Below, piece by piece: positions 1-61,461 of a stretch of DNA of 64,000 bases (position 1 is the first letter of the stretch; every line of letters begins with the position of its first letter). The translations under genes were made by a program, and so were the position numbers. The stretch comes from an uncultured Chloroflexia bacterium (GTDB taxonomy: Bacteria; Chloroflexota; Anaerolineae; JAAYZQ01), in assembly GCA_963701775.1 (NCBI GenBank), contig CAVPBH010000018.1:184568-248567 (forward strand), given 5' to 3'. Below the pieces are notes generated by a model. The model was not told where the DNA came from. It saw only the letters and a program-made list of their open reading frames with translations, and ran no database searches.

Positions 1-93
1 GACGACCGTCGCCTCCCAGCGGCTCCCGCAGCCCGTCAGGCAAACAAGAAGGGCGACGACCAGCACACTCAGCCTTCGCACCTTGCCAGGCAT
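1..93 (-). CDS. lipoprotein, N-terminal fragment (gene runs off window start)
   Basis: Reverse complement of 1-93 reads MPGKVRRLSVLVVALLVCLTGCGSRWEATVV, a classic signal peptide with an LTGC lipobox. The ATG at 93 is preceded by GGAGGAA 7 nt upstream. It sits immediately downstream of the cytochrome gene on the minus strand. Confidence 0.45.
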   Translation of the reverse strand, partial: MPGKVRRLSVLVVALLVCLTGCGSRWEATVV

Positions 94-96
94 CTG

Positions 97-1014
97 CTAT
101 TCCTCCGACACCAGCTCGATCACGCCGGCCATCCACTGCGCCCGGCCGCGGTTGGGGAGGACGAGGACGACCTGCTGGCCCATCTGGGCCAGCACGGCGC
201 CCCTGGCTTCGACTGCGGTCAGCGTGTGCTCCGCCCCAGAGGCGTCGCGTACCAGCAGGGTGTCGAAGCCGGGATCGGCCACAATACTCTCCAGGCCCGG
301 CCCCTCGATGCGCGAGGCAGTCTTGGCCTTCCGCACCTGACCGTCGACCTCGCTGTGCAGCATGACGTCAGTCTGCTCGATCGTCGCGCTGGTCGTCGGC
401 CCCAGCAGCAGCCGGCCGATCGAGGTGCGGTAGCCATCCAGAGTGAGCGGCCTGTCCGGGCCGACGACGATGATGCGCCACACTCCTTTCAGCCAGGTGG
501 AGACGTGCAGGTTCTCCGCGGCAAACCGCACGCCGTCCACGTGGGGCAACAGAAGCGCGTCGGCAGTCAGGTTGTCCCGCTCGACGGTGATCAAGCCCTC
601 GTCGCGAGAGGCGAGGGTTACGCTCTCGAACTCGGTCACGCCCTGCCCGGCCAGAAAGTCGAGCAGCGCCACGTGGGTGCCGGGCTGGTCGCGGTAGGGC
701 AGGATCTCATTCACGGGGATGTAACCCGGCTCGGGCACGTCACCCTGCAGCAGGATCAGGTCGTCGAAGGGCACGTTGGCCATCTCTGCCGAGCCGTGAT
801 CGTCGTGGCAGGTAGCGCACGTGTGGAACTTGTCCGGTTCGTGGCACTCGACGCAGTCGTTCATCGTCTCGGCCTCTTCGGCCAGCATCGCCCACGGGAA
901 GTTGAACACGGAGCGGGCCGGAGCTGCCACTCTTGCTCCCACCACCACCGCCACCGCCGCGCCACCCACCACCAGCGCCGCCAGGACTGCCAGTATCAAC
1001 CAGGTTCTCCTCAC
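97..1014 (-). CDS. membrane-anchored dihaem c-type cytochrome with two C-terminal ~85-aa beta-rich modules
   Basis: 305-aa ORF with an N-terminal TM helix (WLILAVLAALVVGGAAVAVVV). It has two CxxCH motifs (CVECH, CATCH) followed by two copies of a module also present in the next-but-one genes. The start is GTG with GGAGAGGAGG 7 nt upstream. Confidence 0.6.
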   Translation of the reverse strand: MRRTWLILAVLAALVVGGAAVAVVVGARVAAPARSVFNFPWAMLAEEAETMNDCVECHEPDKFHTCATCHDDHGSAEMANVPFDDLILLQGDVPEPGYIPVNEILPYRDQPGTHVALLDFLAGQGVTEFESVTLASRDEGLITVERDNLTADALLLPHVDGVRFAAENLHVSTWLKGVWRIIVVGPDRPLTLDGYRTSIGRLLLGPTTSATIEQTDVMLHSEVDGQVRKAKTASRIEGPGLESIVADPGFDTLLVRDASGAEHTLTAVEARGAVLAQMGQQVVLVLPNRGRAQWMAGVIELVSEE

Positions 1015-1033
1015 TAATCAGCCTCCTCTCCTC

Positions 1034-1825
1034 TCATCTTGCCCCCAGCCACACCAAACCAGCCACGATCGACAAGAGCAGTGTCCCCAAAGCAACTCCA
1101 TCCAGCCACGTGGCATGCACCTCGCGCAGGAATGTACGCGTCGCATGCTTGCCAAAGCAGCGGCCTTCCATCGACACGGCCAGCGCATCCACCTTGCCCA
1201 ACGCCGAGACCAGCAGCGGCAGGACGAACTGCCGGGCCAGGGTCAAGAACCGGCGCGGGCTCCGCACGTCATAGCGCACGCCGCGCGCCAGTTGGGCGTT
1301 GTAGACAATCTGGCCCTCCTGCTCAAAGGTCGGCACAAGCCGCAGCGCGGTGATGAGCGCGAATCCGTAGCGGTAGGGCATCCCGGCGCGCATGAGCGCG
1401 TAGGCCAGGTCGCTGGGCTCGGTGGTCAGCACAAACAGGTAGCTCAGCAGGATCACGCTGAGGAAGCGGCCGGCGACGTAGACGCCCGCCTCCACCCCAC
1501 CGGCGGTGACGGCCAGCGACCCCACCGTAGCCCATGTGGCCCCTTCGCGCACGAACAGAACCTGGAGCAATCCCAGCAGCAGCGCCGTGCTGACGAACAG
1601 GCGCGCGCCGCGAAGGCGGACCAGCCGCACGCCGGCTATCGGGAACCCAGCCAACAGCAGCATCACCGCCCCCGCCACCGCCCACGGGCTGCGCACCACA
1701 AAGACAAGGACCGTGCCCAGGATCAGCCAGGCCGCCTTGGTAAGCGGATGCAGGCGGTGGAGGAAGGAGTTGCCGGGATGGTAGGCGATGCGTGTGGCCT
1801 GCGGCCCGGTGCGTCTAGCAGACAT
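1034..1825 (-). CDS. ecfT: ECF transporter T component (EcfT/CbiQ family)
   Basis: Polytopic membrane protein with the LHRLHPLTK motif and a C-terminal ARGVRYD signature typical of CbiQ/EcfT. The ATG at 1825 has a GGAAAGAG RBS. The longer ORF-track start at 1900 is probably a spurious extension. Confidence 0.8.
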   Translation of the reverse strand: MSARRTGPQATRIAYHPGNSFLHRLHPLTKAAWLILGTVLVFVVRSPWAVAGAVMLLLAGFPIAGVRLVRLRGARLFVSTALLLGLLQVLFVREGATWATVGSLAVTAGGVEAGVYVAGRFLSVILLSYLFVLTTEPSDLAYALMRAGMPYRYGFALITALRLVPTFEQEGQIVYNAQLARGVRYDVRSPRRFLTLARQFVLPLLVSALGKVDALAVSMEGRCFGKHATRTFLREVHATWLDGVALGTLLLSIVAGLVWLGAR

Positions 1826-1938
1826 AGGCGCTCTTTCCGAGGGCTCGCAGCTGGTCGAACGCCTGGCCGGTGGGGGCGTCGATGGCAATCGTGCCTCCAT
1901 GGAAGAAGAGCAGGCGGCTGGCGTAGCGGCGCGTGACC

Positions 1939-3273
1939 TCAGGCGCGTGGTTGACCATGATCACCGCGCCGCCCCCGCGCAACGTGTTCCCCCAGCAGGC
2001 CGAGCAGGAAAGCAGCGTTGGCGGGGTCCTGGCCGATCAGCACCTCGTCAAGCAGGATCAGGCGCGGGGCGTAGCTCAGCACCGAGAGCAGGTTCAGGCG
2101 GCGCTTCTGGCCGTAGCTGAGGCGATAGGGATGGTCTCCGCGCCGGTCGCCCAGGCCACAGCGGATCAGCAGCTCCCCGACGCGGTCCTGCGTCGCTGCG
2201 GTCAGCTTGCCGAAGTTGCGGGCGGCAAAGGTTGCCTCCTCCCACACGCTGTCGGCGAAAAGCTGGTGATCCGGGTTCTGGAAGACATAGCCCACCTGCC
2301 CGGCCATCTCCGAAACGGGCGTCTGCCGGGTGTCGTGGCCCATCACCTCGACCCGGCCCCCGCTGGGCCGGCGCAGCCCCAGCAAGCAATGCAGGAAGGT
2401 GGTCTTGCCCGAGCCGTTGTCGCCCATGATCGCCACGAACTCGCCGGGCTGCACCTCCAGCGAGAGCCCGTGCAGGACAGGGCGGCCGTTGTAGCCGGCG
2501 TCCAGGTCCTCGACCTGGACGAGGGAGGAAACGCGCGAAGGGACAAAGGGCGAACCGGCACGGGGGCCCTGCTCCTGCTCCCTGTCGCTTGGCGGCATAG
2601 CGCCATCGCGGACGATCCGGCCGTCCTCCATCTCGACCAGGCGCGGGTGGAAGCGCCGCAGGTAGTCCACCTTGTGCTCGATGACAATGACCGTGATGCC
2701 TGCTTTCTCCCGGATATGTTCGATGACGCCGAACACCTCGGCCGTGGCCGTGGGGTCCAGGTTCGAGGTCGGCTCGTCGAAAATGAGCACCTGGGGCTTG
2801 GCTGCCATCATCGCTGCGATGGCGACCTTTTGCTTTTCCCCGCCGGAGAGGGTGGCCAGTGCCCGGTCCTGCAGATGCTCCGCGCCGACGATGCCCAGCG
2901 CCCAGCTCATCCGCGCGCGGATCTCGTCGCGGGGCAGGCAGCGGTTTTCCAGGCCAAAGGCGACCTCGTCGCCCACGGTCAGGGTGCAGAACTGGGCCTC
3001 GGGGTTCTGCTGCACCAGGCCGACGATCTCGGCGGCGTCGTAGATGGGGCTGTTGCGCACATCGATCCCGCCGACGGTGACGCATCCCTCGGCCTGACCG
3101 TCGAACTGCCGGAAGAGATATCCGCCGATGGCCAGCGCCAGCGTGCTCTTGCCACAGCCCGACGGCCCGGTGACGACCAGGAACTCACCCGGCTCGACTT
3201 TCAGAGCCAGGTCGCGCAAGGCATACGTCTCGCTTCCCCGGAAGCGGAAGCTCAGCCCTTCGACGGAAATCAT
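1939..3273 (-). CDS. ecfA: ECF transporter ATPase, fused duplicated EcfA1-EcfA2
   Basis: 444 aa with two ABC ATPase domains. The Walker A motifs are GPSGCGKST and GDNGSGKTT, with LSGGEKQ and LSYGQKRR signatures and Walker B DEPTS/LLDEV. The stop overlaps the start of the next gene. Confidence 0.85.
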   Translation of the reverse strand: MISVEGLSFRFRGSETYALRDLALKVEPGEFLVVTGPSGCGKSTLALAIGGYLFRQFDGQAEGCVTVGGIDVRNSPIYDAAEIVGLVQQNPEAQFCTLTVGDEVAFGLENRCLPRDEIRARMSWALGIVGAEHLQDRALATLSGGEKQKVAIAAMMAAKPQVLIFDEPTSNLDPTATAEVFGVIEHIREKAGITVIVIEHKVDYLRRFHPRLVEMEDGRIVRDGAMPPSDREQEQGPRAGSPFVPSRVSSLVQVEDLDAGYNGRPVLHGLSLEVQPGEFVAIMGDNGSGKTTFLHCLLGLRRPSGGRVEVMGHDTRQTPVSEMAGQVGYVFQNPDHQLFADSVWEEATFAARNFGKLTAATQDRVGELLIRCGLGDRRGDHPYRLSYGQKRRLNLLSVLSYAPRLILLDEVLIGQDPANAAFLLGLLGEHVARGRRGDHGQPRA

Positions 3274-4682
3274 CGGACCTCGATGCGCTCTACCCGGGCG
3301 GCCAAGACCTCGCCGTCCATGCGGGCCAGGGCAAAGGTCACGTCGGCCTCGCCGATCACGGTGAACAAGCGCAGCTCGTCATCAGCCAACACTTCGCTCA
3401 GCGGCAGCGAGAGGAGTCCGGTACTTGTGTAAACCAAGACCGTCTCAGCCGTGCCCCGAGGTTCCATCGCCGCCAACACCTTGCCCAGGGGCACGCCCTG
3501 CAGTTTGCGCGGACCGTCGCCCATGTCGAGGCGGGTGCTGTCCATGTCGAACTGCCAGTCGTCGGGATCGTAGGGTGAAGGCGCATCCAAGGCGCCGCTC
3601 ACCTCCAATGTTGAGGCGCCGACCACGACCAATTCCTGCACACCGCGTACCCAAGCTTTGCTGTTCAGCGCGCCGACGACGTTGTACGAGGCGTCGTCGC
3701 CCTCGCCTTGGGGCGAAAGCAGCAACGCCTCGTTGTCGCGCACTTCATCGAGGCCGATGAAAAAGGCGTAGCCATCGGTGGCGTGCACCAACAGCAGCGT
3801 GGCTGCGGGCTGAGGCTGGGCAGCGGCGAGAAGCTCGCGGACAGGCACACCCTTGTACTGGCCGGTCACCTCGCGCAGCGTGCCTTCCGCCGTGGTCGTG
3901 CCCAGGTCACCGTGCTCGGTAGGATAGTCGTAGGGCGTGGCCACGGCCCCGCCAATGTGGACCGTCGCCGGGCCGCGAAGCGCGCCGCGCAGGTACACCG
4001 CCAGCACCACGGTGAGCAGGCCTGCGACGACTAGGAAGATCGGGTAGGCGCGGCGGTTCATCGGTACTGGCGCCGCATCCTTGACCACGCCGGCGCGGCG
4101 CAGGGCGCTGAGCAGCCCCCGGCTCAGCACCCCGGCAAAGAGCACGCCGGAGAGCAAGGCCACGCCCGCCACCAGCAGCATCGCCCAATAGGCCAGCGTG
4201 TCGGCCGGCACCGAGGCAAACAGCTGAAAGACGAACACATTGGAGGCCGCGGCCAATCCCCCGGCCAGGCAGTAGGCGACCAGCGAGTCCTTGTGGCGGA
4301 AGGGAAAAAAGCCGAGGTCGACCAGCATCCCGGCGACGATGTCCACCAGCACCACCAACAGGCCGTGGGTATTGCCGGTCAGCAGCTCGACGCCACCCTT
4401 GAGCAGGCCGGTGATCGTGCCTGCGCCCTGTTTGCGGGTCAGACCCACGGCCAGGGTCAGCCACAGCACATGCAGTCCGGCCGCCCACTGCGTCGTGCCC
4501 GCGAAACCGAAAACCGACTGGAATACGTCGCCGACGGCGTTGACATAGGTGCTCACCACGCCGCCGAGCGCGGCCAGGGCAGCCATCATCAACAGGTCAC
4601 GGGTGGAGTAATAGGTACGTCGCTGAATCACTTGTACCCCCCGGCGGGCTTGGGCGTGGATCAGGCCATGCTCCACGCCCAA
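3270..4682 (-). CDS. ECF S-component-like membrane protein fused to two extracytoplasmic beta-rich modules
   Basis: The N-terminal ~170 aa has 5-6 TM helices and resembles ECF S components (TTQWAAGLHVLWLTLAVGLT...). The C-terminal ~280 aa holds two copies of the module seen in the 97-1014 and 4764-6446 proteins. The likely true start is the internal Met at ~4589. Confidence 0.55.
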   Translation of the reverse strand: MGVEHGLIHAQARRGVQVIQRRTYYSTRDLLMMAALAALGGVVSTYVNAVGDVFQSVFGFAGTTQWAAGLHVLWLTLAVGLTRKQGAGTITGLLKGGVELLTGNTHGLLVVLVDIVAGMLVDLGFFPFRHKDSLVAYCLAGGLAAASNVFVFQLFASVPADTLAYWAMLLVAGVALLSGVLFAGVLSRGLLSALRRAGVVKDAAPVPMNRRAYPIFLVVAGLLTVVLAVYLRGALRGPATVHIGGAVATPYDYPTEHGDLGTTTAEGTLREVTGQYKGVPVRELLAAAQPQPAATLLLVHATDGYAFFIGLDEVRDNEALLLSPQGEGDDASYNVVGALNSKAWVRGVQELVVVGASTLEVSGALDAPSPYDPDDWQFDMDSTRLDMGDGPRKLQGVPLGKVLAAMEPRGTAETVLVYTSTGLLSLPLSEVLADDELRLFTVIGEADVTFALARMDGEVLAARVERIEVR

Positions 4683-4763
4683 GCCTTCTGCGCCGCAGCC
4701 CGGGAGCTCGCCGGCCTCGATCCCGGCGATCGGGCCAGCCGGCGCTTCCTTGGTTGCGAGTCG

Positions 4764-6446
4764 CTACTTGACCTGGATCTCGACTACACCCTTCACCTGC
4801 ACGCTGCCGGCGAAGCCGGGCAGGACGGTGCTGAAGCCGCCCTTGCTGCGGAACGAGACGATGCAGTCGGCACATGCCAGTACGTCCGCCAGCGGGACCT
4901 CGGCCGTATAGCCGTCGTCGGCGACAAAGACCAGCGTCGTGGCATCGGCGGCGGGCGCGGCCATCTCCAGCAGCTTACTCATGGAGACGCCGGTGTAGGT
5001 CTCGGTCTCGCCCGACTTGTTGGTCGACTGCGCTTCCATGGTCTCCATGGCCAGCACATCCGCCTCGAGCCAGCCGATCTCCTGGCCCACCTTGCCCGTG
5101 ATCTTGAGCGCGGCGCCCTCGGGGATGCCCCCGGCGGGCGCCTCGGCGGGGGTGCCGCCGGAGATCTGGAGCTCGACGAGGCCCTTGACCTGGAGCTTGC
5201 CGCCCTGGCTCGGCAGGACAGAGCGAAGGCCGCCCTCGGGATCGAAGGCGACGATGCAGTCGGCGCAGGCTGCTACGTCGGCCACGGGAATCTCGGCGGT
5301 GAAACCGTCACTCGCCACCAGGACGAGGGTGGCGTCCGCGGGAGTGTTGGCCGCCTCGAGCAGGATGCTCATGAGCACGCCGGTGTAGGTGGTCGTCGTG
5401 CCGTCCTTGCCGGTGTAGGGCACGTCGATCGTGCCGAGGGCCTTCAGCTCCTCCTCGGTCCAGGACAGCTCCTGCGCAGGTCCGGTGAGCTTGAGCACGG
5501 GCGCAGCGGGTGCCGGGGTGGTGCTGGCCGGTGCGCCGGGGTAGAAGAGGGACTGGCCGAATTCGTCGACGCCAAAGTCGCCGATCATGGCCTGCACATC
5601 GTCCGACAGGATCCACTCGACAAACTGCATAGCGAGATCATACTCGACGCCCGGGTGCGTGTCTGGGTTGACGGCCATGACGCCGTAGGGGTTCAGGAGC
5701 TTCTTGTCGGGGTTCTCGGTCAGGGTCGCGCCGCCGACCACGATGGTCAGGTCGGGCAGCTTGTCCTCCATCGCCAGCCAGGTTCCGCGGTCGCTGAGCG
5801 TGTAGGCCAGGCTCTCCTGCGAGAAGAGGAGCGTGTCTCCCATGCCTTGGCCGAGCGACTTGTACCAGGCCATCTCTGCCGTGGGGGTGATCGCCGCCGA
5901 GGCCCACAGGGAGATCTCCTTGTTGTTGGTGCCCGACTTGTCGCCACGGCTGGCAAAGGTCGCCTCGGCCGCCGCGATGGCCGTCAGGGCGTCCACCGAG
6001 CTGGTCATCCCGGCTACCGCGGCCGGGTCAGCCGTGGGGCCAACGAGGACAAAGTCGTTATACATGACGTCAAAACGCTCCTTGGCGTTGCCGTCGGCGA
6101 CGAACTTGTCCTCCGATTTGCGGCTGTGGACGAGCAGCACGTCGGCGTCGCCATTGGCGCCCATCTCTAGCGCCTGGCCGGTGCCCACGGCGATGTAGTC
6201 CAAGTTGCAGTCGCAGACCTCCTCAAACTGAGGCACGAGGTAGTCCAGCAGGCCGGTATCGGCCGTGCTGGTGGTGGTCGCCAGGATGAGATCGGCTTCC
6301 TCGGCTGTCGTTGGCTCGGCAGTCGGCTCGGCGACAACCGCCGTCGGCTCGATCACTTCTGGCTCCTCTGTGGCGGCCCCGCAGCCGGCAATCAGGCCGG
6401 CGAACAGGGCCAGGACGATACACAACGCAAACAGTTTCTTGGACAT
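4764..6446 (-). CDS. tupA: TupA-type tungstate/molybdate ABC substrate-binding lipoprotein with two extra C-terminal modules
   Basis: Signal peptide plus lipobox (LIAGC). The PBP-like domain carries the TupA-characteristic ATTTSTADTGLLD motif. Two tandem ~110-aa modules follow, also visible as a ~370-bp direct repeat at the DNA level. AGGAGGAAG RBS. Confidence 0.75.
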   Translation of the reverse strand: MSKKLFALCIVLALFAGLIAGCGAATEEPEVIEPTAVVAEPTAEPTTAEEADLILATTTSTADTGLLDYLVPQFEEVCDCNLDYIAVGTGQALEMGANGDADVLLVHSRKSEDKFVADGNAKERFDVMYNDFVLVGPTADPAAVAGMTSSVDALTAIAAAEATFASRGDKSGTNNKEISLWASAAITPTAEMAWYKSLGQGMGDTLLFSQESLAYTLSDRGTWLAMEDKLPDLTIVVGGATLTENPDKKLLNPYGVMAVNPDTHPGVEYDLAMQFVEWILSDDVQAMIGDFGVDEFGQSLFYPGAPASTTPAPAAPVLKLTGPAQELSWTEEELKALGTIDVPYTGKDGTTTTYTGVLMSILLEAANTPADATLVLVASDGFTAEIPVADVAACADCIVAFDPEGGLRSVLPSQGGKLQVKGLVELQISGGTPAEAPAGGIPEGAALKITGKVGQEIGWLEADVLAMETMEAQSTNKSGETETYTGVSMSKLLEMAAPAADATTLVFVADDGYTAEVPLADVLACADCIVSFRSKGGFSTVLPGFAGSVQVKGVVEIQVK

Positions 6447-6488
6447 TTCTTCCTCCTATTGGTTGGACATCTTCCGGATTCGGTCCGG

Positions 6489-7226
6489 CTAATACACCAT
6501 CTCTCCACGTACAAAGGCGGCCGTGCGCGGATCGCGCGGCGAATCGAAGAAGGTCTGGACATCCTCCGCCTCGGCGACCTGGCCGTCGAGCATGAGCACG
6601 ACGCGGTGGGCCAGGCGCCGCGCCTGGAAGACGTTGTGGGTGACCATGACCATGGTCGTGCCCTGCTCGGTGTTGAGCGTCCGCACGATATCCTCGATCA
6701 GCCCCACGTTGTAGGGGTCGAGGTTCGCCGTGGGCTCGTCCAGCAGGAGGACGTCCGGCCGCAGGACCATCGCCCGCGCCAGCGCGACGCGCTGCGCCTC
6801 GCCCCCGGAGAGGGTGCGCGCCCGCTGGCCGGGGATGCCGCCGAGGCCGACCTTTTCCAGCGTGGCCTGGACCAGGGCGCGGGTCTCGGCCCTGCGCTCG
6901 CCGCGCAACTGCAGCCCGTAGAGCACGTTGGCCCAGACGCTGCGGTTCAGAAGCAGTGGTCGCTGGAAGACCATTGTCACGCGCCGGCGCTCGGCGACCG
7001 GCGCCCCCTGGCCCGGGCCATACGCGCGGCCGAGAAAGCGGATGGTGCCGGACGAGGGCGATTCGAGGAAGTTGAGGAGACGCAGGAGAGTGGACTTGCC
7101 CGCGCCGCTGGGGCCGACCAGGCCGAGGATCTCGCCGCGCCGCACCTCCAGGGCGTCCACCCGCAGGACAGCCCGGCTGCCGTATGTCTTGGTCACTTGC
7201 TGCAGCTCGTAGACCGCATCGCTCAT
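6489..7226 (-). CDS. tupC: ABC transporter ATP-binding protein (TupC-like)
   Basis: Walker A GPSGAGKST, signature LSGGEAQR and Walker B LLLDEPT. Its position in the operon matches TupC. Confidence 0.8.
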   Translation of the reverse strand: MSDAVYELQQVTKTYGSRAVLRVDALEVRRGEILGLVGPSGAGKSTLLRLLNFLESPSSGTIRFLGRAYGPGQGAPVAERRRVTMVFQRPLLLNRSVWANVLYGLQLRGERRAETRALVQATLEKVGLGGIPGQRARTLSGGEAQRVALARAMVLRPDVLLLDEPTANLDPYNVGLIEDIVRTLNTEQGTTMVMVTHNVFQARRLAHRVVLMLDGQVAEAEDVQTFFDSPRDPRTAAFVRGEMVY

Positions 7227-7936
7227 TCGTCGAAGGTCCTTCCCTGCAGCCGCAGCATGATCACGTTGGTCAGGAACGAGATGGAGAGCAGGATGGCACC
7301 GAGAGCGATGGCCAAGTCAAACTCGCCCTGGCGCGTGCCGAGGACGATGGCGGTGGTGAGAACTCGGGTCGAGTGCTGGATGTTGCCGCCGACGAGCATC
7401 ACGGCACCGACTTCGGAGATGATGCTGCCAAAGCCGGCGATGATCGACACGATCACCCCGATGCGCGCTTCGGAGAGGATAGCCGCGGCCACCTGCCAGC
7501 GCGTCGCACCGAGAGCTTGCACCTGCTGGCGGAGAGCCGGATCGACGCCCATGACGGCGGCCATGGTGAAGCCGGCGACCAGCGGGAAGGCGATGATCGT
7601 CTGGGCAAAGATCATGGCCCCGGGCGTAAAGAGGTTGGGAATCCACGACCACCCCAGGCTGCCCAGCGGCCCGCTGCGGGAGAGGAGGAGGTAGACGAAG
7701 AGGCCGACCACGACCGGCGGGAAGCCCATGCCGGTGTAGAGGAGGGCGATGACGAGCCGCCGGCCCATGAAGCGGCTCAGCCCCATGATGACGCCCAGCG
7801 GGATGCCAATGACCGTGCTGAAGAGCAGCGCGATGCCCGACACGCGAAGGGACATCACGACGATCTCCAGCAGGTCCGGGTCCAGGTGGGCGATCAGGCG
7901 GATGGCCTCGACGAGGCCCTTCCAGATTTCCTCTAT
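7223..7936 (-). CDS. tupB: ABC transporter permease (TupB-like, ModB family)
   Basis: Binding-protein-dependent permease with EAA-like loop and GATRWQV. Conserved N-terminal sequence extends upstream of the first ATG at 7858. An AGGAG RBS precedes an in-frame ATA at 7936, with no ATG, GTG or TTG available there. The start is uncertain: 7858 or 7861 if a canonical start codon is required. Confidence 0.7.
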   Translation of the reverse strand: MEEIWKGLVEAIRLIAHLDPDLLEIVVMSLRVSGIALLFSTVIGIPLGVIMGLSRFMGRRLVIALLYTGMGFPPVVVGLFVYLLLSRSGPLGSLGWSWIPNLFTPGAMIFAQTIIAFPLVAGFTMAAVMGVDPALRQQVQALGATRWQVAAAILSEARIGVIVSIIAGFGSIISEVGAVMLVGGNIQHSTRVLTTAIVLGTRQGEFDLAIALGAILLSISFLTNVIMLRLQGRTFDE

Positions 7937-8432
7937 GGTGGTCTCCTACCCAGTCAAGCTCTTCCGTGTGCCGATCGGGCGTGTTCCATCTTCCAGGCAA
8001 CAAAAAAGCGCCTCGAAAGCGAGGCGCTGTGGCTGCCGGGATAGGCACGGATCTCCAGAAGAGTCCGTGCCTGCGGCACATGTCAGCGCATCTCCTTTCC
8101 AAGGATGGGAGGCGTGGCCGTTTCCAGCCAGGCCCTACCGGCCTCGCTCCATAGGATCCCCCGGGTCCTTCCCTGGTCCCGGAAGGAGCGCCCGTAGGCA
8201 ACGAGGCTCGGAGATGCTGCGATTTGGTTGTTCAGGAACTGTGAAAAATGTAACACGCCAGAGCGGGGATGTCAAGCGCGGCGCGGCGATTGGAGCGTGG
8301 GCCGGCTGGCACTGTGCGCACAGGTACTATGGCTGAGGATCGCTTTTTTTGGGGGAAACAATTACCGATTGAGTCACTGTGGGGATGGAGGGGATATGGA
8401 CACGGGCGATTGAATCACTGTTGATGTCTCCT

Positions 8433-8461
8433 TTGGTTTTCCGCCGGATGCAGGGTACAAT
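8433..8461 (+). promoter_or_regulatory. sigma70-like promoter TTGGTT-17-TACAAT upstream of moaA
   Basis: The hexamers and 17-nt spacing are read directly from the sequence. The predicted transcription start leaves a leader of about 115 nt before the moaA ATG. Confidence 0.4.
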
Positions 8462-8584
8462 ACGATGCTGGTTGGTGACGATAGATGCGAGATCAGGGCG
8501 CTTTCGGTGTGGGACTCGAACCGCCGTGCTATGCCGCGCAGGCACAGGCCTGGCGGGCAATGCCCCCAGGAAGAGCAGGGTTGA

Positions 8585-9814
8585 TTGCCCTTCCAGGATG
8601 ACTTTGGCCGCGCCATCAATTACCTGCGCGTTTCGGTCACCGACCGCTGCAACCTGCGCTGCGTCTACTGCATGCCGCCCGGCGGCGTGGACAAACAGCC
8701 GCACGAACATGTCCTCAGCTACGAGGAGATGGCCCTCGTCATCCGCGCCGCAGCCGAGACCGGCATCCGGAAGGTCCGGCTGACGGGCGGGGAGCCCCTC
8801 GTGCGCCTCGGCCTGGCCGAGTTCGTGCGGATGATCGCCGCCATCCCCGGCATCGACGACCTTTCCATGACGACGAACGCCACGCTCCTGGCCGGGCATG
8901 CCCGGGCGCTGGCCGACGCCGGCCTGAACCGCGTCAACATCAGCCTGGATACGCTCCAACCCGAACGCTTTGCCAGCATGACACGCCGGGGCAAGATCGA
9001 GGATGTCTGGGCAGGCGTCGAGGCGGCCCGGGCGGCGGGCCTCACCCCCATCAAGTTCAACGCCGTCGTGATCCGCGGCCTGAACGACGACGAGGTACCC
9101 AGCCTGGCCGAGAAGAGCTTGACCGACGGCTGGCACATGCGCTTCATCGAGTGGATGCCGATTGGCGACACAGCCGGCTGGGCGGCCGGCGGAGCGGTGC
9201 CGGTCGCCGAGATTCGCGCGACGATCGAGCAGCGCCTTGGTCCCCTGCAACCGGCCCCCGGCCCCAGGGGGAACGGCCCGGCGCGCTACTTCCGGCTGCC
9301 CGGAGCCACGGGCACCATCGGCTTCATCGGGGCGCTGAGCGAGCACTTTTGCGCGTCGTGCAACCGCCTCCGGCTCACCGCCGACGGACGCCTGCGGCCC
9401 TGTCTTCTGGCCGAGCAGGAGGTCGACCTGCGGCCCACGCTGCGGGCCGGCGGCGGCCTGGAAGCGGTCCGGCAGCTCCTGGCGCAGGCCATCCAGTCCA
9501 AGCCCATGTGCCACCACCTGGACGAGGCACGGGTGCCCCAGGGCCGCACGATGTCCCAGATCGGGGCTAGGGGCCGAGACGGCCCCACGAGGGGTATACT
9601 ATGCAGCTTTCCCACGTCGATGAATCGGGCCGGGCACGCATGGTGGACGTTGGCGCCAAGGCCGATACGGAGCGGGTGGCGATTGCCCAGGCGCGCGTCA
9701 CCCTGCTTCCCGCCACGCTGGCCCTCATCCGCACCAACGCCGCGGCCAAGGGCGACGTCCTGGCCGTGGCCCAAATCGCCGGCATCCAGGCCGCCAAGCG
9801 GACGCACGAGCTGA
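8585..9814 (+). CDS. moaA: GTP 3',8-cyclase MoaA (radical SAM); the C-terminus appears frameshifted
   Basis: Carries the [10 protein letters not shown] radical-SAM motif and is full-length MoaA-like up to ...GRTMSQIG. The ORF then runs on for ~80 aa, overlapping moaC. One extra G in the atcggggctag run (~9568) would give the canonical ...MSQIGG* ending at ~9574. Confidence 0.85.
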
Positions 9815-10086
9815 TCCCGCTCTGCCACCCTCTCCTGCTCACCCACATCTCGGTCGAGCTGGCGCCGGAGCAGTCCGGCGACGAGGCGTGGATCGACCTC
9901 AAGGCGACCGTCCGCACCACGGGCAAGACGGGCGTCGAGATGGAGGCGCTGACGGCCGTCAGCATCGCGGCCCTGACCGTCTACGACATGTGCAAGGCCG
10001 TGGACCGCGGCATGTGCATCACCGGCGTGCGCCTCGTCCACAAGAGCGGGGGCAAGAGCGGGGAATGGAACCGGGAGGAAGCATGA
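9601..10086 (+). CDS. moaC: cyclic pyranopterin monophosphate synthase MoaC
   Basis: 161 aa with MoaC family sequence throughout ([13 protein letters not shown]...HKSGGKSG). Confidence 0.9.
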
Positions 10087-10549: not shown

Positions 10550-11266
10550 ATGAGCCGGACGGCGAGCTACTACGACCTGCGCGATGCGCTGGCCCTGCCG
10601 GGCTGCCCGGTGTGCCGCTTGGCTGCGCGCGACGCCGAGCGCTATCTCGACGGCCTGTTGTGGGAGCACGTCACGGATCCCGGCGTCCGGGCCAAGGTCC
10701 GCCGCGCGCAGGGCTTTTGCCGCGACCATGCGCGGCTTCTCGACCGGGCCGGCGCGGCGCTGGGCGTGGCGATCCTGATGCAAGACGTGCTGCGCGCCGT
10801 GCTGGAAACCCTGGAAGGCGCGCACTTCCAGGCCCCGCCAGCGCTCTCGCTTCGCCGCGCACAGGAAACGCTCGACCCCGGCCAACCCTCGGCCGCAACG
10901 GCCGAGCTGGTGGCACGCCTGGCGCCCGGAGAACCCTGCCCGGCCTGCGCCCGCGCGGGCGAGATGGAGACGGTCTACCTGGACACGCTGGTAGAGCAGT
11001 TGATGGGCGAAGAGGGACTGCTGGGCGCGTACGGGGTATCCGGCGGTCTGTGCCTTCCCCATCTCCGGCTGGCACTGGTCCGGCTGCGCGAGCCGGCCGT
11101 CTTTGAGGCACTGGTGAGTGCACAGCGCGACATCTGGGGACGCCTAGAGGCCGACCTGCGCGAGCAGATCCGGAAGAACGACTACCGGTTCCGCGACGAG
11201 CCGTGGGGCGACGAAAGCAATGCCTGGCTGCGGGGGCTGGCTGCCGTGAGCGGAGGGCTGCCCTAG
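10550..11266 (+). CDS. hypothetical protein with paired CPxC...C-x2-H motifs
   Basis: 238-aa ORF in the Moco operon orientation. It has two CPVC/CPAC motifs with downstream Cys/His (CRDH, CLPH), suggesting a metal-binding protein. No family could be assigned from sequence alone. Confidence 0.5.
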   Translation: MSRTASYYDLRDALALPGCPVCRLAARDAERYLDGLLWEHVTDPGVRAKVRRAQGFCRDHARLLDRAGAALGVAILMQDVLRAVLETLEGAHFQAPPALSLRRAQETLDPGQPSAATAELVARLAPGEPCPACARAGEMETVYLDTLVEQLMGEEGLLGAYGVSGGLCLPHLRLALVRLREPAVFEALVSAQRDIWGRLEADLREQIRKNDYRFRDEPWGDESNAWLRGLAAVSGGLP

Positions 11267-40624: not shown

Positions 40625-43402
40625 TCAGGGCACCGTCTTTGTGTCGCAGCTCTCATAGTTCTGAAGCGGATCATACCTGTACCCACTCTTGATGACGTTC
40701 GTCACGCACACGCGATATGTCCCGGTCTGCTTGGAGGAGACCAGGAACTTGGCCTTGCCGAGCAGGTTGGTGAGGACGACCTGCGACGTCGTCGTGCCAT
40801 TGGGGAGGGTCCAGGTAGCGTAGACAAGGGCACCCGAGACCGGCCTCCCGGCATTGTTCAAGATGGGGACCTCGCCGCTGACCTTCCAATAGGTGAACAG
40901 CCTCATCGCGCCCATCAGGATGTTGCCGACGTGCAGTGACGGCACAGCGGACGTCACCTGGATGGTCACGGTAGCGGTGTCGCACATGCCGAACGTGTCG
41001 CAAACACGGTACGTGAAACTGTCCGTGCCCGTCCAGGGAGAGGTCGGGGAGTAGGTGAAGGTGCCGTTGCCGTTGTTTACCACCGTGCCGTGGGCCGGCA
41101 CCGTGACCACCGCCGCCGTCGTGGGGTCCAGGTTGCCGTCGGGATCGACGTCGTTGGCGGTAGCATTGATCAGGACGGCTTTGCCCGTAGCGGTGGTGGC
41201 CGAATCGTCGCGGGCGTCCGGCGCCCAGTTGGCCCGCACCGTCACGGTGTTTTGCACCAGCTCCCCTCCACAGACGTTCCAGGCACTCATCGACACCAGG
41301 TGGTCGCCGGGGGCGTCATAGACGTGCACGACCGGGTTGTCGCCCTGGATAAGGCCGTCCGGCAAGGATTCCTCCGAGTCGAACGCCCAGGTGAAGACGA
41401 TTGGCGCGGAGCCTTGCGCAGAGCCCGTGAAAGTCGTCGGCTGGCCCACACTCGGCATTGCCGGATCCCAGGTGAAGGCCAGGTCGTGAAGCGGCTCGAG
41501 CACTTCCAGGTCAGCCGGAACGGTCACCTGCGACTCGTCGGGGTCGTTGCTGGAGACCTGGATGCCAGCGGAGTACTGCCCTGGCGCCAAGCCTGCCGAG
41601 TCGAAGGTCACGGTCACGTCGCGGCACTCGCCGGGTGGTATGCTCCCGCCGAGCGGCTCCTCGCGCAGCCACGAGACCGAGTCAGCGGCGACCTGACCGT
41701 CGATCCGAAAAGCCAGGTCATGCGGCCAATCGGGGCTCCCCGCCTGGACTCGCCACGAGACCCATCCCTCGTGCCCCCCACCCCAGTGGTCCATGGGGTC
41801 GATGAACTGGGCCTCCTGTCCGTTCTCCGTCGTGCCAAAGTACCAGTAGAAGGCGTCTTCCTCGAAGCTGGCGAACTCGGGGAAGAAGAGGAGCCACCAA
41901 GAGCCCGAAGGCACAGCCAGTGACCCGCCCAGGGCGGCCACGAGGTCGAGCGTGACGTCGCCGTTGTACTGCCCGCCGATGGTAACCGCCGGATCGTCGG
42001 GGGAAGTGCTCCAGCACCAGAACTCGCCGCCGATGAGTGGGTGGCCCGCCGGCACCCCGCCGGCGTCCGGGTATATGCACCAGTGAAGCGCGGAAGCGTG
42101 GCTCATGCTGCCCCACCACATGGCGCCGGGGACGAAGATCGACTCGATGCTCCACGGCTCCAAGTTCACAAAGTCGTCGGCGGAAAAATCACTCCAGCCG
42201 TCGACGGTATACATATCGGAGTGTCCGGTGTTCTGGGCGAGGGTTGATTGGTCCCAAAGGATCCCTTCCGGCCGTCCCTTCCTTTCGCCTGCCATCTCGG
42301 ACAGGATCCAGGTGAGAGCCCCGTCCCCGGTGTTGCAGACCTGGAGTGTCTGAGTGGTGGTCGTATCGGGGCACAGTGTGGCGCTGAGGGACACCGGGCT
42401 CACGTCGATGTCGGGCTCGGTCACGGTGATTGCTTGTGTCACGCTTTGCTGGCCGCAGCCATTGTCGATCGTGAGCGTCACCTGGTATGTGCCCTTAGCC
42501 GCATAGGTGTGTGTTGCCACAGAGCCGATGCCCGTATCGCCGTCGCCAAAACCCCATTCGTACTGGATCGGCTCGCTGCCCTCGCCGGTACCCCGGAAGG
42601 TGACCTGCTGGCCCACGTTCGGGCCGGCCGGCAGCCAGGTAAAGCCGGCACCATGCGCGGGATCGAGCGCGGTCAGGCTGACGGGAACCAGCAGGCGCGG
42701 CGTCTCGAAATCGTTGCCCTGCACCAGCAGGCCACCCGCGTAAGAGCCGGGTGCCAGACCTGCCGTGGTGAAGGTGACCGCCACGCTCGTTTCGTCTCCG
42801 GGAATGACCGTCCCCCCAGTCGGGTCCTCGCTCAGCCAGGGAATATCGGCCTGGGGGCCGGCATAGGCCTCCACGCGCAAGGCCTTGCCTCCCGATCCCG
42901 TATTCCAGCTATCCCCGTACCAGATGGCGGATGGCGAGTTCTCGTCTGTCGCAGCTTGGGCCCAGAACCATTGGCCATAGGGCTGGATTGCCATGTCCAT
43001 ATAGAAGATGAGCCACCAGTGGCCGGCGGGCACGGCAGCGCACTGCCGGTGGCTAGCAGCAGGTCGAGCGTAACGTCGCGCCCCGCAGTCGATCGTCACT
43101 CCCGGGGCACCGGGCGACAGGCTCAGGTTCCAGACGTCGAGCCCATCGCCCGGCACTCCGCCCGGCTGCCCGCCGGCATCGGCGTAGAGGTACCAGCGAA
43201 ACGCACTGGCGTTGGCCGGGTCGGACGAATACTCACCGCCGCCGACGATGATGCGGGAAATCTCCCACGGCTCGGCGTTGACCAGGTCCTCTGCCGAGAA
43301 GGTGCAATAGCCATAGTCGGTGAAGCACTGCGAGGCAGACGAATAGGGACCTTCCTCGAGCTGCTCCGCCAGCGCCGGCTCGGGCGGCCGCTCGGACAGC
43401 AT
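40625..43402 (-). CDS. giant secreted adhesin-like protein, fragment 4 of 4 (C-terminal)
   Basis: Contains two SQCF...GHWWL-FY...QWFW domains, two W-SLSE/SNDPD modules, PKD domains and a cadherin-like domain (ANDVDPDGN). It ends in the shared C-terminal domain (TGTYRVCVTNVIKSGYRYDPLQNYESCDTKTVP). The upstream frame is joined at a G-run near 43395. Confidence 0.6.
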   Translation of the reverse strand: MLSERPPEPALAEQLEEGPYSSASQCFTDYGYCTFSAEDLVNAEPWEISRIIVGGGEYSSDPANASAFRWYLYADAGGQPGGVPGDGLDVWNLSLSPGAPGVTIDCGARRYARPAASHRQCAAVPAGHWWLIFYMDMAIQPYGQWFWAQAATDENSPSAIWYGDSWNTGSGGKALRVEAYAGPQADIPWLSEDPTGGTVIPGDETSVAVTFTTAGLAPGSYAGGLLVQGNDFETPRLLVPVSLTALDPAHGAGFTWLPAGPNVGQQVTFRGTGEGSEPIQYEWGFGDGDTGIGSVATHTYAAKGTYQVTLTIDNGCGQQSVTQAITVTEPDIDVSPVSLSATLCPDTTTTQTLQVCNTGDGALTWILSEMAGERKGRPEGILWDQSTLAQNTGHSDMYTVDGWSDFSADDFVNLEPWSIESIFVPGAMWWGSMSHASALHWCIYPDAGGVPAGHPLIGGEFWCWSTSPDDPAVTIGGQYNGDVTLDLVAALGGSLAVPSGSWWLLFFPEFASFEEDAFYWYFGTTENGQEAQFIDPMDHWGGGHEGWVSWRVQAGSPDWPHDLAFRIDGQVAADSVSWLREEPLGGSIPPGECRDVTVTFDSAGLAPGQYSAGIQVSSNDPDESQVTVPADLEVLEPLHDLAFTWDPAMPSVGQPTTFTGSAQGSAPIVFTWAFDSEESLPDGLIQGDNPVVHVYDAPGDHLVSMSAWNVCGGELVQNTVTVRANWAPDARDDSATTATGKAVLINATANDVDPDGNLDPTTAAVVTVPAHGTVVNNGNGTFTYSPTSPWTGTDSFTYRVCDTFGMCDTATVTIQVTSAVPSLHVGNILMGAMRLFTYWKVSGEVPILNNAGRPVSGALVYATWTLPNGTTTSQVVLTNLLGKAKFLVSSKQTGTYRVCVTNVIKSGYRYDPLQNYESCDTKTVP

Positions 43403-54847: not shown

Positions 54848-56563
54848 ATGCACAGCATCAACTCCGCCTTCTTCGTCCTCGCCCTGCTCCTGGGCGCCGC
54901 GTCTGCCGCATCCGGCCCGGTCCAAGCGCCTCCCCTGCCGCCGGCGCCCGACTGGACGGCCGAGGGACAGCAGGACTGGGCCCACTTTGGCCTGGCTGCC
55001 GGTAGAGCCGGCGACGTGAACGCCGACGGCTACGGTGACCTAATCGCAGGGGCGCACCTGTACGACGGCGGGCAGACGGACGAGGGCGCCGCCTTCCTCT
55101 ACCTGGGCTCGCCGGCCGGCCTGGGCGCCCAGCCCGCCTGGAGTGCCGAGGGTGACCAGGCGTATGCCTACTTCGGCCGGGCGGTGAGCGACGCCGGCGA
55201 TGTGGACGGGGATGGCTACGACGACGTCCTGGTGGGTGCGTATGGCTACGAGCGAGCGGCGAGCGAGGAGGGGCGCATCTATCTCTACCGGGGGACGGAC
55301 GGAGGCCTAACGCCTCAGCCCACCTGGAGCGCCGATGGGGGCCAGGCCTACGCCAACCTCGGCTGGTCGGTTTCGGGTGCCGGAGACCTTAACGGCGACG
55401 GCTACGACGACCTGGCGGCAGGCGCGCCCTTCTACGACAACGGTCAGGCCGACGAGGGGATAGCGTGGGTTTTCTACGGTTCACCCTCGGGGCCCTCCCC
55501 GGCGCACGGCTGGCAGGGCGAGAGCGACCAGGAGGGCGCTTTCTTTGGATTTTCGCTCGCCGGCGCCGGCGATGTGAACGGAGACGGCTACGACGACCTG
55601 CTCGTCGGCGCCTACGGCTACGACAACCCGCTGGAGCGCGAGGGGCGTGTCTACCTCTTCTACGGCTCGGCCGGCGGCCTCTCCCCGGCCGCCGGCTGGA
55701 CGGCCGAGTCAGGCCAGGCAGGCTCCTGCTACGGCCTGGCCGTGGCTGCCGCCGGCGACCTCAACGCCGACGGCTACGACGACCTGGCCGTGGGCGCCTA
55801 TCTCTACGACGGCACCCTCCAGGACGAGGGCGCGGTGCTTGTCTACCTGGGCTCGGCCTCCGGCCCCTCGGCAGAGCCAGATTGGATTGCCTACGGCGGC
55901 CAGGCATCGGCCTTCCTGGGATTTGCCCTCGGCGCCGCCGGCGATTTGGACGGGGACGGCTTTGGCGACCTGGCCGCCGGCGCGCACGCCTACGACGACG
56001 GGCAGATGGACGAGGGCCGGGCGCTGGTTTGGCTCGGATCGGCCGCCGGGCTGCGGTCAGAGCCTGACTGGGCGGCAGCCAGCGACCAGGAAGGAGCGCA
56101 TTTTGGCCGGCCGGTGCGCTCCGCCGGCGACGTGAACGGCGACGGCCGGGCCGACCTGGTCGCCGGAGCATCGAGCTGGGACGGTGGACAGGTGGACGAG
56201 GGGGCGGTGTTCGTCTACTACGGCGTGCCCGGCGAAACACTGCACCTGTCGCTCCTGAAGCTGGGCTGGAAGCCCGGACCAAAGCCCGGGACCTACGTCC
56301 TCAGCGCAGCAGCAGCGGTCCACGACGGGGACCACGCGCCGGCACCTGGCGTGCGCGTGGCGGGCACGTGGACGGCGCCCGACGGCGCGATCACGGCTCA
56401 AACCGCGCTGACCGACGCCCGGGGCCAGGTCAGGTTCCTCCTGAAGGCACGGCTGGCCGGAGCCTACCAGTTCTGCGTCACAGGCATGGCGAAGGAGGGC
56501 TACGCCGACAATCCGGCGAACGACCACAGCCCCCGCTGCAGGACGGTACAGGTGGGGGAATAG
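54848..56563 (+). CDS. secreted FG-GAP (integrin-alpha-like) repeat protein with the shared C-terminal domain
   Basis: Signal peptide MHSINSAFFVLALLLGAASAASG. About 9 FG-GAP repeats (GDVNADGYGDLIAGA..., GDVDGDGYDDVLVGA...). The C-terminus is RGQVRFLLKARLAGAYQFCVTGMAKEGYADNPANDHSPRCRTVQVGE. Confidence 0.75.
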   Translation: MHSINSAFFVLALLLGAASAASGPVQAPPLPPAPDWTAEGQQDWAHFGLAAGRAGDVNADGYGDLIAGAHLYDGGQTDEGAAFLYLGSPAGLGAQPAWSAEGDQAYAYFGRAVSDAGDVDGDGYDDVLVGAYGYERAASEEGRIYLYRGTDGGLTPQPTWSADGGQAYANLGWSVSGAGDLNGDGYDDLAAGAPFYDNGQADEGIAWVFYGSPSGPSPAHGWQGESDQEGAFFGFSLAGAGDVNGDGYDDLLVGAYGYDNPLEREGRVYLFYGSAGGLSPAAGWTAESGQAGSCYGLAVAAAGDLNADGYDDLAVGAYLYDGTLQDEGAVLVYLGSASGPSAEPDWIAYGGQASAFLGFALGAAGDLDGDGFGDLAAGAHAYDDGQMDEGRALVWLGSAAGLRSEPDWAAASDQEGAHFGRPVRSAGDVNGDGRADLVAGASSWDGGQVDEGAVFVYYGVPGETLHLSLLKLGWKPGPKPGTYVLSAAAAVHDGDHAPAPGVRVAGTWTAPDGAITAQTALTDARGQVRFLLKARLAGAYQFCVTGMAKEGYADNPANDHSPRCRTVQVGE

Positions 56564-61389: not shown

Positions 61390-61461
61390 GCGGGAGTAGC
61401 GCAGTGGTAGCGCACCTGCCTTCCAAGCAGGCTGTCGCGGGTTCGAATCCCGTCTCCCGCT
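61390..61461 (+). tRNA. tRNA-Gly (anticodon UCC)
   Basis: Acceptor stem GCGGGAG/CTCCCGC. D-arm AGCGCAGTGGTAGCGC. Anticodon stem-loop CCTGC-CTTCCAA-GCAGG. T-arm GCGGGTTCGAATCCCGT. No encoded CCA. Confidence 0.85.

Follow-up and report, generated by a model that had tools for sequence, protein, structure and literature searches.

The DNA analysed here, a 64,000-nucleotide stretch (hereafter the window) of contig CAVPBH010000018.1 from an uncultured Chloroflexia bacterium, contains a back-to-back divergent control region of an Anaerolineae (Chloroflexota) genome, from which tup-like and energy-coupling factor (ECF) transporter genes are read on the minus strand and moaA on the plus strand. It is very probable that the minus strand of this region encodes a riboswitch of the molybdenum cofactor/tungsten cofactor (Moco/Tuco) family which serves as a transcription-termination OFF switch on the tup/ECF uptake genes, and that the leader of moaA is not a riboswitch. 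A Moco riboswitch had been suspected here in a first-pass annotation made from the sequence; the suspicion was correct for the minus strand upstream of tupB, where a match of 65.7 bits was obtained, and incorrect for the moaA leader, where no match was found at E<=10.

The sequence was read directly from position 7900 to 8750. The true intergenic region extends from approximately 7937 to 8584, with the tupB coding region starting near 7936; position 8044, previously taken as the edge of the uptake operon, is the end of a spurious plus-strand open reading frame (ORF), and a terminator at 8007-8028 had been overlooked. Searches based on MoaA assigned the window to Anaerolineae (Chloroflexota) metagenome-assembled genomes, and comparison was made with related loci, among which L101 was retrieved by means of the ECF S component. 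Seven loci have the same layout (L049, L100, L097/L098, L001/L051, L052, L099 and L101, the last with a truncated moaA), and identity of MoaA to that of the window was 91-93% for L049, 83-84% for L001/L051 and L052, and 77% for L099.

A riboswitch upstream of the uptake genes

A search with the covariance model RF01055, proposed in the first-pass annotation for the reverse strand upstream of tupB, was positive: the aptamer was found at positions 8225..8076 of the minus strand with a score of 65.7 bits (E = 1.4e-13; curated gathering score 36 bits), and the match was full-length (model positions 1-135). In the model alignment helices P1, P2, P4 and P5 are present, while P3 is absent, model positions 59-75 being deleted to give GAGGCC-GGU-AGGGC with P2 joined to P4 by 2-3 nt. 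P2 is enlarged by a 35-nucleotide (nt) extension hairpin and contains a receptor-like CCUACG...CCUAUGG, a one-base variant of the model's CCUAAG...UAUGG; P4 is capped by a GAAA tetraloop (GGAAAC), and the conserved single-stranded cores CUCCGAGCC, GCCUCCC and GGAAAGGAG agree with the RF01055 consensus.

Orthologous RF01055 matches of 59-74 bits were identified in 13 related loci, and in all seven relatives of the same layout the match (59-68 bits) points away from moaA. Covariation was examined with six sequences and then with 12 orthologous aptamers; the consensus fold of the latter has 36 pairs, of which seven, located in P2 and P4, are changed on both sides with pairing kept, while P1 and P5 are invariant. 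P3 is also absent in all 12 orthologues. All four sequence-level characteristics of RF01055 were thus found in the window RNA, namely the score, the helices with compensatory changes, the tetraloop, receptor and cores, and a leader position with an expression platform. It is a typical, well-supported member of the family in a typical context; binding of the cofactor and a change in expression are predicted for it.

The aptamer is preceded on the minus strand by a strong sigma-70-type promoter at 8275..8247 (TTGACA, 17 nt, TACATT, with TG before the -10 box), which has 10 of 12 consensus matches; against 0.1 expected in the region, it is the sole promoter match. The two hexamers are kept in L049, L001, L052, L097, L099 and L101, and we infer a transcription start near 8240. 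Downstream, approximately 50 nt after P1, lies the only strong terminator in the region, an intrinsic terminator with its hairpin at 8028..8007 of the minus strand (7997..8029 with its tail), consisting of a 9-bp stem with seven G-C pairs, a CUUU loop and then UUUUUUGUU. It is conserved in L049, L001, L052 and L097, with a compensatory change of the stem in L001 (CUCG/CGAG to CUCA/UGAG), and one or two terminators are found at the equivalent place in all relatives, among them L099 and L101-L103. Tandem terminators after the aptamer were observed in several relatives (L099 2895-2975; L101 975-1060; L102 and L103), the loop of the second often being CUUUUC- or CUCCUUUCC-like and complementary to the aptamer core GGAAAGGAG.

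Two further minus-strand segments lie upstream of the terminator. The P1 3' strand and its tail (GGAGAUGCGCUG, 8084..8095) are the predicted 5' half of an antiterminator, and a strong hairpin (AGGCACGGA...UCCGUGCCU, 8043..8072) is seen in every predicted fold, its sequence being partly conserved in L001 and L052 and absent in L099. When the full leader was folded, aptamer plus terminator had an energy of -117.4 kcal/mol, compared to -115.3 kcal/mol for a forced antiterminator in which GCGCUG (8089-8084) pairs with CAGCGC (8029-8024), which makes the two folds almost equal. In the fold without the P1 5' strand, the lowest-energy structure was the antiterminator, with GGAG..GCGCUG paired to CAGCGCCUC (8029-8021) and no terminator. 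In this fold the antiterminator encloses the 8043-8072 hairpin, to which the models would thus assign a place, and possibly a role, in the antiterminator loop. The antiterminator covaries between clades, GCGCUG:CAGCGC corresponding to GCGCCGU:ACGGCG in L101-L103, where the segments GGAGAUGCGCCGU and ACGGCGUCUCC keep 11 pairs with different bases. Because the predicted antiterminator covaries in the relatives, a transcription-termination OFF switch is considered the most likely mode of action.

According to the proposed mechanism, transcription would start from the promoter at 8275..8247, and the first ~240 nt of the transcript would constitute the riboswitch. With cofactor bound, P1 and its tail (GGAGAUGCGCUG) would be held in the aptamer, allowing the terminator at 8028..8007 to form and transcription to stop before tupB. 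When cofactor is scarce, the tail would instead base-pair with CAGCGCCUC, the terminator's 5' arm, and the resulting antiterminator would let the polymerase enter tupB-tupC-tupA and the ECF genes. The outcome would be an OFF switch providing feedback on the uptake of tungstate (or molybdate) and related compounds.

The closest described counterpart is the P3-lacking subclass of RF01055 (PMC2408646), with which the window RNA shares the full-length model match, P1, P2, P4 and P5, the tetraloop, the cores and the absence of P3, as well as the location upstream of a tungstate/molybdate transporter operon and an expression platform of one of the two types described, the intrinsic terminator. It differs in the 35-nt extension of P2, in the presence of ECF genes, which are unmentioned in the 2008 paper, and in its host, since Chloroflexota/Anaerolineae are not among the groups named there (PMC2408646). 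The Moco riboswitch of E. coli moaA belongs to the same RNA family and has the OFF logic (cofactor represses) proposed for the window RNA; however, it contains P3, is the immediate upstream neighbour of moaA and controls translation, with the ribosome-binding site (RBS) concealed in P1 (PMC2408646), whereas the window RNA is without P3, faces away from moaA and is terminator-based, and the moaA of the window has no aptamer.

The putative uptake operon and the proposed ligand

The first gene under control would be the tupB-like permease (7223-7936, minus strand; 7223..7947 with its RBS; NCBIfam TupB, 4.4e-44), followed on the same strand by the ABC ATPase gene tupC (6489-7226, Pfam), a gene for a tupA-like binding protein of 560 amino acids with C-terminal Oxidored_molyb-like domains (4764-6446; NCBIfam TupA, 1.7e-66), an ECF S component with two outer domains (3270-4682; PF09819, 4.3e-19), a fused ECF A-A' ATPase (1939-3273; ECF_ATPase_1, 320 bits against a cut-off of 315), the ECF T component CbiQ (1034-1900; PF02361, 4.8e-29) and a 305-amino-acid protein with two CxxCH motifs identified by sequence (97-1014). 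No other good promoter or terminator was found on the minus strand in a scan of positions 1-8300, and gene order is the same in L001, L097 and L098; the seven genes (97-7947) are regarded as a putative single operon. The haem motifs of the 305-amino-acid protein are CVECH and CATCH; repeats similar to the S outer domains were judged by eye, BLASTP against these domains gave marginal similarity (E = 0.018), and the protein had no family match.

The start of tupB is probably a non-canonical ATA codon, judging from the sequence around it. The RBS AGGAG (7947-7943) is followed after 6 nt by ATA (7936-7934), as is also the case in L001 and L097, and between the in-frame TAG at 7948 and GTG at 7858 there is no ATG, GTG or TTG, the first canonical start lying 26 codons on. 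The conserved N-terminus of TupB (IEEIWKGLVEAI...) begins right after this TAG, and in a translation beginning at 7945, residue 7 is where the alignment to the NCBIfam TupB profile sets in, at profile position 4. In L001 and L097 the gene callers took an internal ATG, giving truncated proteins of 224 amino acids. When compared with TupABC of the Eubacterium acidaminophilum type, the window genes have their best NCBIfam matches to TupA and TupB, and the window TupA has the PBP_like_2 fold and the TTTS motif (ATTTSTADTG); they differ in the order B-C-A, the apparent ATA start of tupB and approximately 250 extra C-terminal residues of TupA matching Oxidored_molyb.

The ECF genes encode an S component, A-A' ATPases and a T component together. 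A search with the S component returned hundreds of close Anaerolineae homologues, and through it seven loci without tupBCA were fetched (L101-L107). In all seven an RF01055 match of 59-74 bits, in each case lacking P3, lies directly upstream of the S-component gene (L101 822-970, L102 3115-3265, L103 1403-1526, L104 3703-3854, L105 3691-3838, L106 3739-3863 and L107 3700-3866). The genes for S, A-A', T and the ~305-amino-acid protein are likewise conserved in seven of seven loci, and a gene of the PF01663 phosphodiesterase/pyrophosphatase family comes next in all but L102, that is, wherever the contig extends far enough. Related operons add a 281-amino-acid Oxidored_molyb protein besides the PF01663 phosphodiesterase. 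It looks as though the conserved target of the riboswitch is the ECF system rather than Tup, the window clade having tupBCA in between.

The two outer domains of the S component have the sulfite-oxidase (SUOX)/PruR fold and are candidate pterin-binding domains. The AlphaFold model of the S component was confident only at residues 240-470 (pLDDT 74-95), and Foldseek searches with the outer domains gave SorA (E = 2e-7), YedY (E = 3e-5) and PruR 7rkb (E = 8e-5), with the best target coverage on PruR (7rkb and 7kom; target-normalised TM-score 0.61-0.64). The Oxidored_molyb-like domains at the TupA C-terminus (within 4764-5560) are similar to the S outer domains.

Among known transporters, YkoE has no outer domains and is under the control of a thiamin pyrophosphate (TPP) riboswitch. 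The window system resembles this Group I ECF type (YkoEDC) in that its S component matches PF09819, with a model weakly matching structure 5edl, its A-A' ATPase scores above the ECF_ATPase_1 cut-off and its T component is CbiQ; it differs in being under a Moco/Tuco riboswitch and not a TPP riboswitch. PruR is a periplasmic protein which binds pterins (PMC11194511); the window S outer domains share its SUOX fold, while PruR itself is a free-standing signalling protein of Proteobacteria with no transporter part. Searches of the literature found nothing linking ECF transporters to the Moco/Tuco riboswitch and nothing describing a bacterial Moco transporter. A tentative idea, on balance rather unlikely to be right in this form, is that the ECF system imports (salvages) a molybdopterin-type compound, such as Moco, Tuco, cyclic pyranopterin monophosphate (cPMP) or a breakdown product, and is repressed when the cofactor pool is full. 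This idea derives from the riboswitch directly before the S gene in seven of seven loci, the SUOX/PruR-fold outer domains of S, of TupA and possibly of the two-haem protein, and the usual presence of a pyrophosphatase/phosphodiesterase.

Regulski et al. (2008) associated P3-containing RNAs with Moco genes and the P3-lacking RNAs (58 of 176) with tungsten-cofactor or molybdopterin genes, and proposed that the latter sense Tuco (PMC2408646). The Tuco form is somewhat favoured here as the ligand of the window RNA, on correlative grounds: among the Chloroflexota examined, P3-containing copies stand before FmdE (L008 and L010) and P3-less copies before Tup-like or ECF genes. The possibility that the riboswitch instead senses Moco or a metal-free molybdopterin intermediate, with loss of P3 a neutral structural variant, is a substantial one, if the less probable of the two. 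The published assignment is itself correlative, the function of the family having been demonstrated genetically for the E. coli RNA only (PMC2408646); P3-less copies in the phylum also precede moaA (in L058) and an ECF operon with an unassigned substrate; and the Tup-family scores fall under the curated cut-offs. What argues against this alternative is that the Chloroflexota divide between P3-containing copies with FmdE and MOT1 fusions and P3-less copies with Tup-like and ECF genes equals the division reported by Regulski et al.

In the Chloroflexota copies with P3, the riboswitch of L008 (4383-4542) is followed by an FmdE-family gene and then a TauE-type permease, and that of L010 (3988-4122) by FmdE and then a 724-amino-acid fusion of an MFS_MOT1 molybdate transporter with MoaA. 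Two P3-less riboswitches were found on one contig of L002 (1858-2021 and 10411-10533). The first precedes an unrelated 252-amino-acid ORF, an ECF A-A' ATPase, CbiQ, two small ORFs and then moaA, and the second a 474-amino-acid protein with a C-terminal ABC ATPase domain; the first ORF of the former operon was considered as an ECF S-component homologue and rejected, as it showed no homology. No tungsten or molybdenum enzymes were found among ten large ORFs examined in the window. Besides RF01055, the only Rfam match in the whole 64-kb window was a tRNA gene (61390-61461, plus strand; tRNA model, 74.6 bits).

Several observations weigh against the reading of the minus-strand RNA as a terminator-based OFF switch on tungstate/molybdate and ECF uptake. 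Within the closest clade neither the tail nor the terminator arm varies, and the covariation of the antiterminator rests on comparison with L101-L103, where the downstream gene is another one. The ~70 nt between the terminator U-tract (7997) and the tupB RBS (7947) have a function which this reading does not explain. In L058 a P3-less copy lies directly before moaA, from which it follows that loss of P3 marks more than tungsten-specific genes. TupA scored 224.3 bits against an equivalog cut-off of 400 and TupB 151 against 320; these are nonetheless the best-scoring specific NCBIfam families for the genes, which are for this reason termed Tup-like, specificity for tungstate over molybdate not being established by such scores. 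Lastly, the transcription start, the termination and the response to ligand are predictions.

The moaA leader and the spacer

On the plus strand, the promoter TTGGTT-17-TACAAT reported by the first-pass annotation at 8433..8461 was read directly (TTGGTT 8433-8438, TACAAT 8456-8461). It scores under the threshold of the promoter scan, and a promoter occupies the same position in seven relatives, with the form TTGAT[T/C]-17-GGGGTAGAAT (L049, L100, L097, L001, L052, L099 and L101). From this promoter a leader of ~117 nt up to the TTG start at 8585 is inferred, close to the ~115 nt estimated previously. Transcription of moaA-moaC-MOSC would accordingly proceed from its own promoter at 8433..8461 through a non-riboswitch leader. 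The conclusion is that moaA is read from a plain promoter and that its short leader contains a conserved 5' element, and no riboswitch.

The conserved element is a box at the 5' end of the leader (GGTTGGTGACGAnnnATGCGAGAT, 8470..8493), possibly forming a 5'-terminal stem-loop at ~8468-8496. Its first 12 nt are identical in L049, L097, L001/L051 and L052, one base off in L100, and degenerate in L099 and L101, and a 5' hairpin, in which one U-A pair is exchanged for C-G, appears in the consensus fold of the relatives. A search of the window for copies of the box gave one match with one mismatch, at 40765 inside an ORF of 925 amino acids. Long-range pairing of the box with GTCACCGACC in the moaA coding region was considered and rejected, since L001 has GTGACCGAC, which breaks it. 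Elsewhere the leader is variable, with indels of 3 and 24 nt, a length difference of 27 nt between close relatives and a middle part which is unalignable.

At the 3' end, a weak hairpin (8566..8597, plus strand) is formed by the RBS GGAAGAG (8569-8575) and codons 2-4 (CCCUUCCAGG), with TTG (8585-8587) at the edge of the loop. It is the sole leader element present in both the single-sequence centroid and the consensus fold of the seven relatives (GGAAG with CUUCC of codons 2-3); its conservation is weak evidence, because the 3' arm is fixed by the conserved Pro-Phe-Gln coding. The alternative pairings which had been pointed out near the RBS are present as sequences, and as structures they did not hold: L049 and L100 retain 4-5 bp of the pairing between GGGCAAT (8555-8561) and ATTGCCC (8584-8590), L001, L052 and L097 lack the segment, and the folding of the leader is ordinary (z = +0.73, with 147 of 200 shuffles folding at least as well).

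The moaA gene (8585..9814, plus strand) has a TTG start and lacks a normal stop. Its G run at 9563-9566 is one G shorter than in L049 and L001, where the sequence reads ATC GGG GGC TAG (Ile-Gly-Gly-stop), with the result that the window moaA loses the C-terminal Gly-Gly and the stop and continues for 81 further codons over moaC (9601-10086, plus strand). The 120 best MoaA homologues are all ~328 amino acids long, and the frameshift is probably a homopolymer assembly error; if it were real, MoaA would be impaired. After moaC come a MOSC-like gene and a DUF6062 gene. The latter is a Cys-rich gene of 238 amino acids (10550-11266, plus strand), DUF6062 by the annotation of L100, which follows moaA-moaC-MOSC here and in relatives and may belong to the operon.

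Between the back-to-back promoters lies a subclade-specific, lower-GC spacer (8277..8432), delimited by an alignment of seven spacers. The lower-GC island noticed in the first-pass annotation was borne out, with 49-52% GC over ~8320-8500 against 62-71% on either side (90-nt windows). The block of ~150 nt (8277-8432) is confined to the window, L049 and L100, which are 68-74% identical in it; L001, L052 and L097 have ~50 nt instead, with both promoters and the riboswitch kept, and L099 and L101 have unrelated sequence in its place. L049, the closest relative, carries a further insertion between the promoters (2332-2571), a tandem array (96% matches) of 3.1 copies of a 78-nt unit containing inverted repeats GTAGTGGCGA...TCGCTACTAC.

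The direct repeat described in the spacer is likewise real. Copy 1 (CGATTGAGTCACTGT, 8366..8380, plus strand) and copy 2 (CGATTGAATCACTGT, 8407..8421, plus strand) are identical at 14 of 15 positions and lie 41 nt apart from start to start, with 11 nt between the end of copy 2 and the moaA -35 box; an equally good pair was obtained in one of 300 dinucleotide shuffles of the region. Copy 1 is partly conserved (CGATGGAATCACTGA in L049 and CGAATGAACCACTGA in L100), while copy 2 was found only in this genome, L049 and L100 having no clear counterpart. CACTGT occurs 12 times in the 64 kb (both strands), fewer than the 22 expected from shuffles, and three of the 12 occurrences share one strand within the 112 nt from 8310 to 8421, at spacings of 65 and 41 nt, with CACTG kept at the first two positions (8310 and 8375) in L049 and L100. 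No further copy of the repeat was found in the window at up to two mismatches, the nearest being a match with three mismatches at 55032, and when the spacer was compared by blastn-short with the window and every locus, chance 12-13-mers were all that appeared. None of the features stressed in the first-pass annotation, whether the repeat, the promoter on the plus strand, the leader of 115 nt or the RBS pairings, falls within the riboswitch.

Several other candidates in the spacer were rejected. Structured RNA was not indicated by folding (z = +0.7 and +0.3 for the two strands), by the consensus fold, which is weak on both strands, or by Rfam, which gave no match at E<=10. A small ORF (ATG 8331) is shifted in frame by a 2-nt indel relative to L049/L100, with different in-frame stops, and a sigma-54-like TGGCAC (8305-8310) has the wrong spacing to a GC element and is not conserved in L049. 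A second promoter at TACTAT (8325-8330) is a doubtful candidate, having no -35 box.

Three other explanations were weighed for the plus-strand elements, among them a riboswitch in the moaA leader. The leader (8468-8584) would then be a divergent Moco aptamer or a new class, with GGGCAAT/ATTGCCC and CCCTTCC pairing to hide the RBS. In its favour, moaA is preceded by a Moco riboswitch in E. coli (PMC2408646) and in the Chloroflexota locus L058, the RBS hairpin is found in all relatives and the 5' box is conserved. However, RF01055 gave no match at E<=10 on the plus strand in a permissive scan of 7850-8750, nor any in the moaA leaders of L049, L100, L097, L001, L052, L099 and L101; folding is at the level of shuffles, length and alignment vary, GGGCAAT/ATTGCCC is lost without compensation in L049 and L100, and a leader of 117 nt with ~55 nt conserved has neither the size nor the constancy expected of a cofactor aptamer. 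By the criteria of the first-pass annotation, with no covariance-model match even under permissive filters and no conservation of the leader pairings, a riboswitch in the moaA leader is refuted, an outcome the analysis leaves hardly any chance of being reversed, and the proposal of one on the transporter side is confirmed. The conserved 5' box could also be the start of an upstream ORF (ATG 8485, TGA 8599-8601) which overlaps the moaA start and is coupled to its weak TTG. A GGTGA RBS-like motif, a 6-nt spacing and the ATG are kept in six relatives, and the window, L049, L001 and L052 share an open frame ending in the same TGA; yet every substitution between the window and L049 alters an amino acid in this frame, the ATG is absent in L099 and L101, and at 65% GC frames of 30-40 open codons are frequent, making this coupling improbable.

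A role of the repeat, with the third CACTGT (8310), as operator sites (ModE-like or other) for one or both promoters has a better chance than either, and is still unlikely. The repeat is non-random (one in 300), three of 12 CACTGT fall within 112 nt, the site between two promoters with copy 2 at 11 nt before the moaA -35 box would suit an activator or a repressor, and CACTG is kept in L049 and L100 in a block of 68-74% identity, MoaA being 83-93% identical. Conservation does not support such a function, however: copy 2 is unique, in L049 any second copy lies at a spacing that differs by hundreds of nt, L001, L052 and L097 lack the block while keeping both promoters and the riboswitch, no further copy occurs in the 64 kb at up to two mismatches, and no regulator gene was found beside the locus by ORF and profile scans. 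No ModE-like gene turned up among the proteins scanned in the window. The E. coli ModE operator consists of TAYAT-type inverted repeats, unlike the window repeat; the likeness is confined to an upstream position at molybdenum-related operons, and instead of a short inverted repeat the window has direct copies spaced by 41 nt, which are not conserved in relatives. The repeat most likely arose from local duplication or rearrangement in a spacer prone to indels in this lineage.

Control of uptake and synthesis

On the reading of the minus-strand RNA as an OFF switch, cofactor feedback in this Anaerolineae lineage would act on the uptake genes by transcription termination, while moaA, the first biosynthetic gene, which faces the riboswitch, has just an ordinary promoter. 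The attribution of this RNA to moaA was plausible and proves to be wrong. The riboswitch alone has little significance beyond annotation, and the comparison of the ECF loci is the more useful part of the analysis. The association of riboswitch and ECF genes proves nothing about the substrate; it provides a testable hypothesis on what this transporter carries, and the ECF genes enlarge the regulon from which the ligand sensed by the P3-less variant is argued.

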